This document shows positions 5,297 to 17,549 of a DNA stretch of 25,761 nt, piece by piece. Origin of the DNA: an uncultured virus (IMG/VR IMGVR_UViG_2687453430_000003). Taxonomy: Duplodnaviria; Heunggongvirae; Uroviricota; Caudoviricetes. The DNA lies in the IMG/VR virus record IMGVR_UViG_2687453430_000003; one strand, 5' to 3'. The notes below the pieces were generated by a model. The model did no database searches, was not told where the DNA came from, and was given only the letters and a program-made list of their open reading frames with translations. The position numbers and the translations under genes were made by a program. Position 1 is the stretch's first letter. Each line of letters starts with the position of its first letter.

Positions 5297-5733
5297 GACA
5301 GGAACAGAGCGCGCTCCGCCTCACGCCGACGGGTAAGCCCATTAAGGACTTTGCCACCAGCTTTATTCCAGCGCGGGAACTCGTCGGCAGCACCGGCATA
5401 ATCACCGGCATTCAGTTTCTTCAACAGCGTGGACGTCGATAGCGACCGTGCACCGAGGTTGTAGGCGAACGACACCAGCGCATCGAACTGGCCCTGCGTC
5501 AGTTTCACGCGCACCAGCTTCAGCACGTCATTCTCGTAACCCACCAGCCCTGTTTTCAGAAGACGCTCTGCCGTAGCCTGGTCGATAGTCATCCCGTTGC
5601 GCAGAGGCTTGCCGTCAACTGCATGGGTCCAGCCGTAACCGATGGTGAGAACGCCGACAGAATCTTTGTACGCAGTCAGGCTGCAGCCTTCGAACTCTTT
5701 GATGAGCGCGATCCCTTTAGGACTGATTTGCAT
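5293..5733 (-). CDS. R: Endolysin, GH24 phage lysozyme (P22 gp19-like)
   Basis: E-X8-D-X5-T catalytic pattern ([22 protein letters not shown]), [26 protein letters not shown]. Confidence 0.95.
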
Positions 5734-6040
5734 CGTCTACCCCGACTTTCTTCGATGTGAACTTTTTAATCAGGGAACCGATAGAAGCAGTCCCGAGATA
5801 GCCGATGAACACACTGCCGATATAAGCCAGATTTGTGCTCAGACCGATAAAGTCGAGGATGTCTCGAACGAACCAGGCGATCATGGCGCACATGATACCG
5901 TCGATTAACGTCTTCGACAGCGTGTCGCCGTTGTAGCGCCCCCGCAAATACGCCATGATGAAAGCCAGTATTGCGCCGATACCCTGCTCCTTAGCTGCCA
6001 GCAGAGCGGCGATGAAATCTTGTTTGTAGGGCATTCGCAT
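5717..6040 (-). CDS. S: Class I holin/antiholin, lambda S family, dual start (107/105 aa)
   Basis: [31 protein letters not shown]. Met-Arg-Met dual start (ATGs at 6040 and 6034) matches the lambda S107/S105 lengths. Three hydrophobic segments. Confidence 0.93.
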
Positions 6041-6050
6041 AAGCCTCACC

Positions 6051-6065
6051 TCCGTTAATGACGGA
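6051..6065 (-). promoter_or_regulatory. sdi-like hairpin over the holin ribosome-binding site
   Basis: TCCGT-CATTA-ACGGA stem overlaps GGAGG upstream of the dual start, as in lambda S structure-directed initiation. Confidence 0.55.
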
Positions 6066-6154
6066 TGGCGCTGTGTGTTTGAAAGGGTCAGGCCCGTCGG
6101 GCTGGATTTAACAACGAAGCGTGTCGATGATGATTCCTGCGGGACCTGATAATA

Positions 6155-6178
6155 AAAAAGCCATGCAAATGCATGGCC
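6155..6178 (-). terminator. Intrinsic terminator upstream of the lysis genes
   Basis: GCCATGC-ATTT-GCATGGC followed by T6 on the minus strand. Confidence 0.75.
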
Positions 6179-6197
6179 TTGTGATTTGAATCCGTTA

Positions 6198-6226
6198 TTT
6201 ACAAAATGTATTCGAGACAGTATCTT
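6198..6226 (+). promoter_or_regulatory. Putative sigma70 promoter for a small RNA
   Basis: TTTACA (6198-6203) - 17 bp - TATCTT (6221-6226), about 80 nt upstream of a plus-strand terminator. Confidence 0.6.
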
Positions 6227-6232
6227 TCGACT

Positions 6233-6312
6233 TCCGGACAAAAAAACATATACCGGGACAAAATCTAAATGTAACTGCCTTGCCTGCATGAAACCATGCT
6301 GGCTTTTTTTTT
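6233..6312 (+). ncRNA. Candidate ~80-nt sRNA convergent to the late operon
   Basis: Bounded by the promoter above and a terminator (GCCTGCATG-AAAC-CATGCTGGC-T9, 6282-6312). 5' hairpin TCCGG/CCGGG with loop ACAAAAAAACATATA. No ORF. Confidence 0.6.
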
Positions 6313-6319
6313 GCCCAAA

Positions 6320-6343
6320 GAAAAAGCCCACCGAAGTGGGCCT
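6320..6343 (-). terminator. Intrinsic terminator
   Basis: GCCCAC-TTCG-GTGGGC followed by TTTTT on the minus strand (UUCG tetraloop). Back-to-back with the plus-strand terminator at 6282-6312. Confidence 0.85.
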
Positions 6344-6482
6344 TACAGCTATCATCATTTTTTATTAGGTGTGGTGCCGGGTGCCTCCCGGTAAGTCGCC
6401 GCCAGTCCACAGACGACTCGCAATGCGCAAAAAAACATATCAGACTGGCAATGCCCCTCCGCATAGGGGGATTCACCACACC
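6320..6482 (-). ncRNA. Candidate ~160-nt structured RNA
   Basis: Closing stem GGTGTGGTG/CACCACACC (6368-6376 with 6474-6482). Internal stems CCCCT/AGGGG, GCCAGTC/GACTGGC and CCGGG/CCCGG. Own promoter and terminator. Confidence 0.65.
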
Positions 6483-6485
6483 AAA

Positions 6486-6514
6486 AATTTAACATCTGAT
6501 GAAACTCGTTTCAA
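6486..6514 (-). promoter_or_regulatory. Putative sigma70 promoter for the structured RNA
   Basis: TTGAAA (6514-6509) - 17 bp - TAAATT (6491-6486) with extended -10 TGn. Predicted start about 6479-6482, at the 5' end of the closing stem. Confidence 0.65.
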
Positions 6515-6671: not shown

Positions 6672-6700
6672 AATATATGCCTTTCAGTTCGGTTTTGCAA
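6672..6700 (-). promoter_or_regulatory. Late promoter pR'
   Basis: TTGCAA - 17 bp - TATATT, overlapping the 3' end of Q as in phage 82-type modules. Confidence 0.8.
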
Positions 6701-7373
6701 GACTTACATCTAAATTTGTCGCCTTTTGTTGTGAACGTGATCGCGTTACCGATATGAGAGCGTCGCTATCAAGCTTCACAAAACTGCTGCGCAGCGCCAG
6801 CCAATGAGGGAGGTAGGTTTCTGTCCATGTGGACTTTGCTACACCAACCAGCTCCGCCAGCGACTGGTATTCATACGTCTCCCGCCCTGCCAGCTCGGCT
6901 TTGACATCCTGCGCGGCCAGCCAGATAAGTTGACGAAGGCGATCGACAGTCTTCTTCGCAATGCGTATGCCGGCCAGCTTCTCGCTGAATGGCTCCCAGG
7001 CCCACTGGGTGATCGCCACCTGGTACTCAAAGCTAACGTTCTCGCTGTAGTTCCACAGCAGCCAAGCTTTCTGGTGGTCATCCAGCGACAGGACCGCGCG
7101 GCGCCATGACGCGGTACCGAACTCTACCGGGCTGACCAGCGCGATGGATGAGCCTTTGGCGCGGGACTGGCTGCCGCTCATCGCCGGACCGTCCGGGTTC
7201 ACTTTCCGGCCGGTTACCGGGTCGGTGATTTTCTTTCGTCCCCGGCTGCGCGCCGTCGCGGTGAACTGCGCGTTTTCGGCGAAAGCTACCAGCTGCCCTT
7301 TAGTCGCCCCGCTAAGATCTGCAGTCGCCACAATGAGCTGCTGACGTACGTATTCCAGTTGCTGACTGTTCAT
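6684..7373 (-). CDS. Q: Late antiterminator Q (phage 82 type)
   Basis: 229 aa. YVRQQLIVATADLSGATKGQL...AKGSSIALVSPVEF..SWRRAVLSL recognised as the Q82 family. C-terminal HTH. Position between nin and pR'. Confidence 0.92.
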   Translation of the reverse strand: MNSQQLEYVRQQLIVATADLSGATKGQLVAFAENAQFTATARSRGRKKITDPVTGRKVNPDGPAMSGSQSRAKGSSIALVSPVEFGTASWRRAVLSLDDHQKAWLLWNYSENVSFEYQVAITQWAWEPFSEKLAGIRIAKKTVDRLRQLIWLAAQDVKAELAGRETYEYQSLAELVGVAKSTWTETYLPHWLALRSSFVKLDSDALISVTRSRSQQKATNLDVSLAKPN

Positions 7374-15844: not shown

Positions 15845-16321
15845 ATGAAAAAATTAGCAGCTGTAGTTATCGCCTCTGCATTGCTCAGTGCTTGTGCGCA
15901 ACCACCTTATGCCCGTATTGCTTCTGATTACGATCAGAAGATGGCTGAGGCTAAAAAACATGATGCCGAGTTTGCCGAGAAGGTGAGAAATATCAATCTT
16001 GAAACAGCCGATGTCGGTGAAAAGCCAAAGAACTATAAAGAGCTGGTTCAGGCAACAATCAAGGATGCCTTAAAGGATCCTGATTCCGCGAAATTCAGCG
16101 ACTTCTCTCCACTCCGCAAAGAGGTTATGGTTGAGAACAGGAACTTTGTTTACGGTTACTCGACGTGTGTTTTCGTGAACGCAAAAAATTCTTATGGCGG
16201 ATACACAGGTAAGCAACTCTACTGGGCCTTTATCCGCAACGGACAGGTTCTTAGGTTTAAGAATACCAATGACGAGTACGGAGACTTGATCTTCGTAGGC
16301 AGGAAAGTTAACTGCAACTGA
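15845..16321 (+). CDS. Lipoprotein of unknown function in the rex position
   Basis: MKK + hydrophobic stretch + lipobox LLSA-C. LKDPDSAKF...CVFVNAKNSYGGYTG motif. Cotranscribed with cI. Confidence 0.85.
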   Translation: MKKLAAVVIASALLSACAQPPYARIASDYDQKMAEAKKHDAEFAEKVRNINLETADVGEKPKNYKELVQATIKDALKDPDSAKFSDFSPLRKEVMVENRNFVYGYSTCVFVNAKNSYGGYTGKQLYWAFIRNGQVLRFKNTNDEYGDLIFVGRKVNCN

Positions 16322-16755: not shown

Positions 16756-16906
16756 AATGTTTTGGGATTGGATGAATGCGCAGACTGATGCGCAGTGGGA
16801 CGTGGCTGACTCACGAGGATGGCTCAAGCGAATAAGCAAGCTCGACGCCGCCGAATAAGCGCCTTATGCCGGAGATCAGTGCCGGTCATCCAATCACCAA
16901 AACATT
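16756..16906 (+). ncRNA. Structured RNA with kissing loops (possibly sRNA-Xcc1-like)
   Basis: About 20-bp closing stem. Hairpins carry complementary ACTGAT and ATCAGT. The family label is from recollection only. Confidence 0.6.
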
Positions 16907-16943
16907 TCTCCCGCATCTGCGGGTAACGACAGAGGGTGAAGGT

Positions 16944-17549
16944 ATGGGCACACGACATCTTACATGCGTTGTTAAAGACGGTGACTACAAGGTCGCTCAG
17001 TACGGTCAATGGGATGGTTATCCATCAGGACAGGGGGTGGATATTCTTTCGTTTCTACGAGAGAAACTTAATCGTGAAATATTCCTGGTAAATCTTGCGC
17101 AGACATTTGAGCCAACTGACGAGCAGATCAAAGAGTGGTGGCTTGAGGTTGGTCACGACATTGATAAAAGCGATGGCTGGGTAGGATGTGACATTTCAAG
17201 AAAGTACGGTGAAAAACATCCTTCGCTTCATCGGGATACTGGCGGTGATATTTTGGATCTTATCCAAAATGCTAGCAGCCCTGTTCCAATAAGTAAAAAC
17301 TTGGATTTCGCGGCCGATTCATTGTTTTGCGAATGGGCATATGTGATTGATTTCGATAAAAACACATTCGAAGTGTTCCAAGGTTTCAATCAGTTGCCAC
17401 TCGAACAATGTGAGCGTTTTCACTTCCTTTCGGAAAAATGCAGCAATAACTATCAACCCGTAAGGCATTCGAAAACATATCAGTTATGCGAATTACCTGA
17501 TGAAGAAAAATTCTTGGCTGATTTAGAGCCAGGAGAGGAAGAAGAATAG
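16944..17549 (+). CDS. Hypothetical protein (201 aa, MGTRH...QWDGYP motif)
   Basis: ATG after GAGGGTGAAGG. AT-richer than its neighbours. Followed directly by a terminator. Confidence 0.85.
   Translation: MGTRHLTCVVKDGDYKVAQYGQWDGYPSGQGVDILSFLREKLNREIFLVNLAQTFEPTDEQIKEWWLEVGHDIDKSDGWVGCDISRKYGEKHPSLHRDTGGDILDLIQNASSPVPISKNLDFAADSLFCEWAYVIDFDKNTFEVFQGFNQLPLEQCERFHFLSEKCSNNYQPVRHSKTYQLCELPDEEKFLADLEPGEEEE

Follow-up and report, generated by a model that had tools for sequence, protein, structure and literature searches.

The question raised by this locus is what kind of RNA is encoded by the minus strand at positions 6368 to 6482, between the Q and holin genes, of the window (the whole 25,761-nt stretch of DNA analyzed here), and what it may do. 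An earlier note, made from the letters alone, described a compact multi-stem RNA with two potential pseudoknots and an abutting antisense target, and considered it unassignable to a named family. A named family does exist for this RNA, since Rfam RF02076 (STnc100) matches at 6508-6313 with 104.4 bits, above the gathering score of 47, and over the whole model (1-206). By the standard that the note itself had set, a match of this kind removes the novelty. The window RNA is real and is a member of STnc100, a family that is itself already known. STnc100-type RNAs are among the bacterial sRNAs most often annotated (PMC9029176; papers are cited here and below for their accessible portions), and in the portions of the literature consulted no function is given for them.

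The window is a lambdoid prophage in which integrase, repressor, NinG, Q, holin, endolysin, and spanin are present, and its nearest phage records are Klebsiella prophages. The STnc100-type RNA takes a late-region position on the minus strand, with the Q gene on one side and holin on the other (Table 1), and isrJ and STnc100 are the only two Rfam matches in the whole window. The holin frame starts with Met-Arg-Met (6040-6031, minus strand), which presumably resembles the dual-start holin/antiholin motif. The stretch that separates the terminator of isrJ from the STnc100 RNA promoter contains a long hairpin (6572-6531, minus strand), and the segment 6590-6510 folds at -37.1 kcal/mol. This hairpin has no Rfam match, and part of it is also found upstream of loci L109 and L114. 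A second terminator-like hairpin, two-way, precedes the holin leader at 6180-6157, and two ORFs of unassigned function beside the repressor (16866-17549 and 15845-16321, plus strand) are possible accessory genes. A coding role of the STnc100 region was rejected on the grounds that the 94-aa frame across it has no PHROG match. Among the homologs, 74 of 115 picked flanking ORFs were scanned and include 10 Q-like and 16 lysis proteins; no constant partner gene was found among these 74.

Table 1. Positions of the STnc100-type RNA, its parts, and its neighbors in the window
Feature	Position	Strand	Remarks
Q-like antiterminator	6684..7373	-	upstream context; phrog_304, E 7e-97
Late promoter-like site	6700-6672	-	upstream of isrJ RNA
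isrJ RNA with terminator	6668-6590	-	Rfam match
Sigma-70-like promoter	6486..6514	-	TTGAAA, 17 nt, TG-extended TAAATT; predicted start ~6479
Structured core, STnc100 type I	6368..6482	-	Rfam and covariation
P1 closing stem	6482-6474 / 6376-6368	-	covariation
P2 hairpin	6471-6466 / 6460-6459 + 6457-6454 (6454..6471)	-	A6458 bulged; loop UAUGC with invariant U, G, C
P3 pseudoknot helix	6449-6441 / 6409-6401 (6401..6449)	-	encloses variable loop 6440-6422
Conserved GC, then P5 stem	6421-6420, then 6419-6412 / 6400-6393 (6393..6421)	-	P5 loop is the P3 3′ strand
P4 hairpin	6377..6391	-	AGGCA loop; P1 3′ strand directly after
Unpaired A/U-rich tail	6348..6367	-	MicF 5′-end complement; mean unpaired probability 0.94
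Intrinsic terminator of STnc100 RNA	6316..6344	-	predicted; terminator span 6344-6323
Putative convergent small RNA	6198..6312	+	promoter-like 6198-6226, transcript ~6233-6312, terminator-like 6286-6299
Holin	5717..6040	-	downstream context; phrog_126, E 3.5e-37

Several lines of evidence bear on the transcription of the RNA. Across 98 clusters of homologs, the distance from the end of the best -10 box to GGTG is most commonly 8 nt (27/98) and is 8-11 nt in 53/98; 97% have a purine at position -2, and a terminator follows within 150 nt in 49/98 compared to 0-3 in shuffles. By this pattern, transcription would start at about 6479 and yield an RNA of roughly 164 nt. Raw reads of one public single-cell RNA run (about 2% of it read) put 96 reads on 6333-6496, whose ends are undefined and some of which may stem from paralogs. 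The depth in this run is 30-35 over 6374-6455 and 0 over 5800-6209 and 6825-7000, with zero depth across the greater part of Q and throughout the holin stretch examined; assuming a library of the usual type, the reads are oriented as expected for a minus-strand RNA. Runs X1, X3, and X11 show flat contig depths and were excluded as expression evidence. Further data come from STnc100 relatives that occupy the same site between late promoter and lysis genes, EcOnc06 and EcOnc27 (sRNA103) of EHEC and PasD1 and PasD2 of EPEC. The northern probe for EcOnc06 maps inside the core, and the northern sizes of EcOnc06 (~177 nt) and EcOnc27 (~235/247 nt) are larger than the predicted ~157 and ~169 nt. The mapped PasD1 transcript begins at the first base of P1 and extends to the U-tract. 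A riboswitch over the lysis genes was considered and rejected: only E. coli terminators resemble P2 (by eye), so there is no general expression platform.

For the fold, homologs were collected with a 5′ motif (at least 130 viral loci) and a 3′ motif (at least 128 genome loci, including chance matches outside enteric bacteria without the 5′ half). Among the matches listed, 202 distinct cores were parsed into 101 clusters, of which 91 are type I, the type of the window, and 10 are type II, which differs by another P2 stem. Of the type I clusters, 11 were redundant or badly parsed and were left out; the other 80 were aligned with the window, and the resulting 81 cores were used to build a covariance model. 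In EHEC Sakai this model finds 17 copies, and in EPEC E2348/69 it finds 6. Outside the center genome, with only 24 candidates scored per genome, it finds copies in 0/150 genomes sampled from the class and 2/150 from the order. One E2348/69 copy (L422 1500-1530) has its 5′ end replaced by other sequence, apparently through an insertion.

The 115-nt core folds at -51.1 kcal/mol (z -2.76), and 2/200 shuffles are equally good. All strands that the earlier note named are present at their positions, and its compact multi-stem RNA is supported as a selected fold that contains a single true pseudoknot. The closing stem, both hairpins, and the P3/P5 pseudoknot are conserved over ~100 divergent homologs and all covary except the 3′ hairpin. 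In P1, P2, P5, P4, and a 2-bp GC pairing, 97.9% of the cells pair in the 81 cores, compared to 42-48% in slid registers as control, and double changes occur at 14/25 pairs (206 cells vs 49.9 in shuffles). The proposed closing stem is borne out by double changes at 6 of its inner 7 pairs, with the inner 6 bp of the 9-bp stem kept family-wide. The 3′ hairpin CCGGG-AGGCA-CCCGG (P4) likewise stands, with 99.8% of its cells paired; it lacks double changes because it is almost invariant, and AGGCA is present in P4 of 26/28 loci retrieved by the 5′ motif.

The stem GCCAGUC/GACUGGC (P3) reaches a score of at least 12 in 84/101 clusters, compared to 30% of 3000 swapped pairs, which agrees with the helix proposed before. 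The strands that had been put forward as a second pseudoknot form P5, in which 5/5 core pairs show double changes. P5 starts immediately after the conserved GC in 80/91 clusters, and when anchored on this GC alone it forms 7.6 of 9 pairs vs 5.3 with the 3′ strands swapped (n = 84). P3 and P5 together are an H-type pseudoknot. The spacing from the P3 3′ strand to ACC is 8-10 nt in 61/72 clusters past the filter, which would fit a P5 loop whose bases are all paired and which stacks on P5; covariation would also result from a switch between P3 and P5 as alternative folds. Two details of the first description had to be given up after the 81-core covariation and pairing counts. The hairpin CCCCU-AUGCGG-AGGGG is conserved as a hairpin, but not in that register: the U-A pair is found in 43/81 only, and covariation favors a shift by one with A6458 bulged. 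The first pseudoknot, AUGCG with CGCAU (6427-6423), has five Watson-Crick pairs in 1/81 cores, the window itself, vs 1.5% of swapped pairs, and its CGCAU strand sits in the variable loop.

The Rfam STnc100 consensus is drawn without P3, and therefore without the pseudoknot, and in a P2 register other than the one favored by covariation. The word "pseudoknot" does not occur in the accessible text of the Pas preprint (bioRxiv 10.64898/2026.05.13.724894), whose supplements carry a PasD/STnc100 alignment and seeds of possible relevance to the fold and the seeds proposed here. In the open-access literature, as far as its accessible portions go, neither the STnc100 pseudoknot nor a MicF/RybB decoy role was found in print. 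For the invariant GC of the P2 loop there are two candidate partners, the GC ahead of P5 and the GC in the P4 loop, and the alignment does not decide between them because these bases are invariant. Weak hints favor the P4 loop as partner: type II has no G before P5, PasD1 (L384 1261-1433) kept the pseudoknot but is missing both the P2 loop and the P4 hairpin, and a further group of RNAs termed type III has a longer kiss at the same loops (33/45 with at least 5 Watson-Crick pairs).

The second half of the question concerns the tail behind the core. MicF acts through its 5′ end, and MicF, RybB, MicA, MicC, and OmrA/B all use 5′ seeds and repress porins. The tail of the window RNA is complementary to K. 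pneumoniae MicF (an Rfam hit), pairing perfectly with nt 1-12 at 6359-6348 and additionally with nt 16-21 (18 pairs, -18.5 kcal/mol). The match was spotted first and verified afterwards, and is thereby post hoc; a 12-nt complement to any of 17 sRNAs is reached by 8/3000 tail shuffles. The tail thus offers the accessible complement to a core-sRNA seed that is expected of an Hfq-dependent anti-sRNA. What is new here, as read from the sequence, is this candidate MicF-pairing tail on an STnc100 variant.

At least 120 viral contigs contain the window's tail, most of them in near-identical form, and it stands behind at least 4 core types. In six loci the flanks differ and the 12 nt are kept, of which the search pattern itself demanded 11. 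An unrelated tail, L005, pairs 13/14 with the same MicF end. A query with a 7-nt RybB complement gave 10 matches, 8 of them family-type tails and 7 of those with ~17 pairs, and the RybB-complement tails occupy the same slot as the MicF complement before a similar terminator. Tails and cores are exchanged frequently, with at least 2 tail types in 16/32 recurring cores and at least 2 cores in 17/38 recurring tails. Over the family, sRNA complements of at least 9 nt occur in 27/123 tails vs 15.4 expected. Against six 5′ seeds, a set picked after the hits were known, z ≤ -3 is reached by 12/123 tails, compared to 7/123, 7/123, 5/123, and 3/119 in four real-sequence controls, which were used alone since shuffle expectations in this test are biased low. 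The family-wide enrichment of sRNA complements is modest, and for most tails tested, the ten Sakai copies included, a convincing sRNA partner is absent. Weaker complements to the OmrB/MicC 5′ ends are seen in tails L011, L023, L046, L001, and L108, among them an EcOnc27-type tail.

The best reading of the window RNA, which we hold to be slightly more likely than not, is a stable scaffold that presents an anti-sRNA (sponge) seed. The prophage sRNA of ~164 nt (6479-6316) would be transcribed separately in the lysogen. Its 5′ 110 nt form the closed four-helix core with the H-type pseudoknot, a fold supported by covariation, and would act as the stabilizing scaffold. The 3′ module of unpaired tail and terminator would load on Hfq, as is seen in the EHEC/EPEC homologs: the EcOnc27 Hfq peak in EHEC covers P4, tail, and terminator after a ~142-nt shift between genome versions, an offset inferred by calibration on AsxR. 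By mimicking the MicF target, the tail would pair with MicF nt 1-12 and 16-21. MicF, which represses ompF (PMC9988348), would be sequestered and repression of OmpF/OmpK35-type porins lifted, so that the RNA would serve as a phage anti-sRNA. Recombination at the conserved core ends would swap tails and provide other copies with other seeds, such as the RybB complement or mRNA-directed seeds as in PasD. The earlier note's idea of a decoy may be right, but what is seen favors a decoy for RNA (a host sRNA sponge) in the tail, outside the coordinates considered then, over the protein-binding decoy that it named.

Two published interaction tables were compared with this reading, and neither lends it support. 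The RIL-seq data of EPEC hold no rows for the intact STnc100 copy, a weak test in which MicC is not expressed. In K. pneumoniae MGH 78578, a strain that may not carry the window variant, no family-type partner was found among 32/37 MicF rows, and none in the RybB rows, again a weak test. The top MicF partner there, KpnR_124, is a plasmid RNA (L572, pKPN3 50982-51224) that accounts for 29,516 of 38,652 MicF interaction reads and also pairs with RybB; it was rejected as an STnc100 member, being unrelated, and is a possible plasmid-borne MicF sponge. Further literature compared comprises the accessible portions of PMC12370729, PMC10794520, PMC12197685, PMC13502914, and PMC10907235. A PasD target motif is given in the figure supplement of PMC8550237.

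PasD1 points toward another explanation, an ordinary Hfq-dependent sRNA that pairs with host mRNAs via tail or variable loop, the MicF match being chance or secondary. Its 21 RIL-seq partners are mostly mRNAs, in 11/21 targets the five 7-mers that occur twice all map to the tail (a weak signal), and overexpression of EcOnc27 alters fimZ and espA (PMC12711010, PMC7873438). However, the duplex energies of PasD1 with its targets (11/21) are no better than background, and a perfect match from MicF nt 1 together with RybB complements in the same slot is unlikely by chance. This explanation is rather unlikely for the window RNA.

A point against the sponge reading is that PasD1 binds mRNAs despite the loss of P4 and the P2 loop, so that the invariant core must serve something beyond sponging alone. 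In another explanation the core itself is the active part, with host RNA polymerase, a nuclease, a defense protein, or a small ligand as its binding partner and the tails as passengers or second function. Invariant unpaired residues at junctions and loops, the retention of the core in type II RNAs of early operons without a terminator tail, and up to 17 copies per genome are in line with this, but no constant neighboring protein and no Rfam aptamer match were found. We regard a core-active RNA as improbable on balance, and it does not exclude a sponge role.

The compact pseudoknot could also suggest a self-cleaving or processing ribozyme, or a tRNA-like RNA that RNase P processes, similar to C4/CI. 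There is direct stacking of P4 on P1, as of the T arm on the acceptor stem, and tRNAs adjoin some copies. Like tRNA, C4/CI antisense RNAs, and T4 rnaC/rnaD, the core has a closed layout of several stems in which a 3′ hairpin of 5 bp stacks on the closing stem, and T4 rnaC even ends in the same CCGGG/CCCGG stem. To our knowledge, the helix order of the core fits no ribozyme class. The ribozyme reading of the earlier note finds no match to Rfam ribozyme families even at E ≤ 10 and no pile of read starts or ends in the 96 reads (a weak criterion), and PasD1 and the promoter spacing fit a primary 5′ end. The tRNA mimic is tRNA-like in overall layout only: ARAGORN finds nothing, there is no T-loop consensus, and the 3′ CCA is not conserved. 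No Rfam match of the window RNA to C4 antisense RNA was found, and homology to T4 rnaC/rnaD was rejected as the covariance model of the 81 cores gives no hit on them at E ≤ 1. Processing of either kind is very improbable.

The earlier note had also proposed that a convergent small RNA binds the variable loop and switches the fold. Such convergent pairs are known at the same prophage site (PMC4104026). The 5′ hairpin loop of the putative ~80-nt RNA (6239-6251), which has no Rfam match, is complementary to the variable loop at 6440-6428 over 13 nt. This match is real; 2/1500 flank shuffles reach 13 nt, and a few opposite-strand reads are found at 6210-6291 in the single-cell run. The convergent hairpin occurs in 110/117 loci with the window's tail and enough flank, a co-occurrence explained by linkage. 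The partner is missing from 2/7 loci with the window's core and full flanks. As a family feature it was rejected, since a match of at least 12 nt is present in 1/83 clusters and the T-run lengths of the two RNAs do not co-vary across 120 loci. With an A/U-rich loop duplex of -13.1 kcal/mol and an unconserved first pseudoknot beside it, the switch is the least probable explanation.

The sponge reading has precedents in known systems. AgvB/AsxR (PMC4104026) are alike in that they derive from lambdoid prophages, sit at the same moron site in convergent pairs, and mimic targets of core-genome sRNAs via a variable seed. They differ in being 51-60 nt long with a 5′ seed, on the strand opposite the late transcript. 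In the window RNA the candidate seed is 3′, behind the 110-nt pseudoknotted core, and the RNA is the other member of the pair; it does not show the AgvB/AsxR length and conserved 3′ 42 nt, and neither strand has a Rfam match to them at E ≤ 10. OppX of Salmonella pairs with MicF as well and is reported to derepress ompF, whereas it originates from the chromosomal oppA 5′ UTR (PMC9988348). Within STnc100, PasD1 resembles the window RNA in keeping P1, P3, and P5. The window variant is unlike known STnc100 members in its MicF-complementary tail, and its P3 pseudoknot and P2 register are absent from the Rfam model.

A wider group of RNAs surrounds the family. The covariance model gives 53-65 bits for type II (11/11 loci), 31.7 for PasD1, and 16-31 for type III (9/9 loci), the last being biased because these loci were picked by their shared-end pattern. 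Among the loci scanned, L148 is the only type II locus above the Rfam threshold, and no Rfam family matches type III. The names IS009 and sRNA-Xcc1, considered for type II and type III, respectively, were rejected. Type II relatives are found in early prophage operons (L133 998-1117, L147, L148, L156, L171, L176, L183, L205). The L133 region has a match in 2774/5426 E. coli genomes and precedes a pseudogene at the yfdQ position and yfdR. The type III RNAs L265, L277, L279, L281, L295, L304, and L339 have the same ends as type I and a loop-loop kiss, with compensatory changes in L339 and L279; two type III RNAs lie directly ahead of tRNA genes.

Tentatively, and with less confidence than for the window RNA itself, STnc100 as a whole may be a programmable sponge chassis. 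Prophages of enteric bacteria would carry arrays of the stable pseudoknotted core, with exchangeable tails that mimic targets of porin-repressing host sRNAs (MicF, RybB, and perhaps also MicC and OmrA/B) and thereby adjust the amounts of porins and phage receptors in the lysogen. The core would be part of the wider phage RNA group, together with type II in early operons and type III with kissing loops. The corrected fold offers defined mutations for probing and the basis of an improved Rfam model. If true, a MicF/RybB decoy would give a directly testable role to the STnc100 family, whose members are present in 17 copies in EHEC Sakai and adjoin stx2. Lysogeny would then be linked to porin control and, through it, to phage receptors and the entry of nutrients and drugs.
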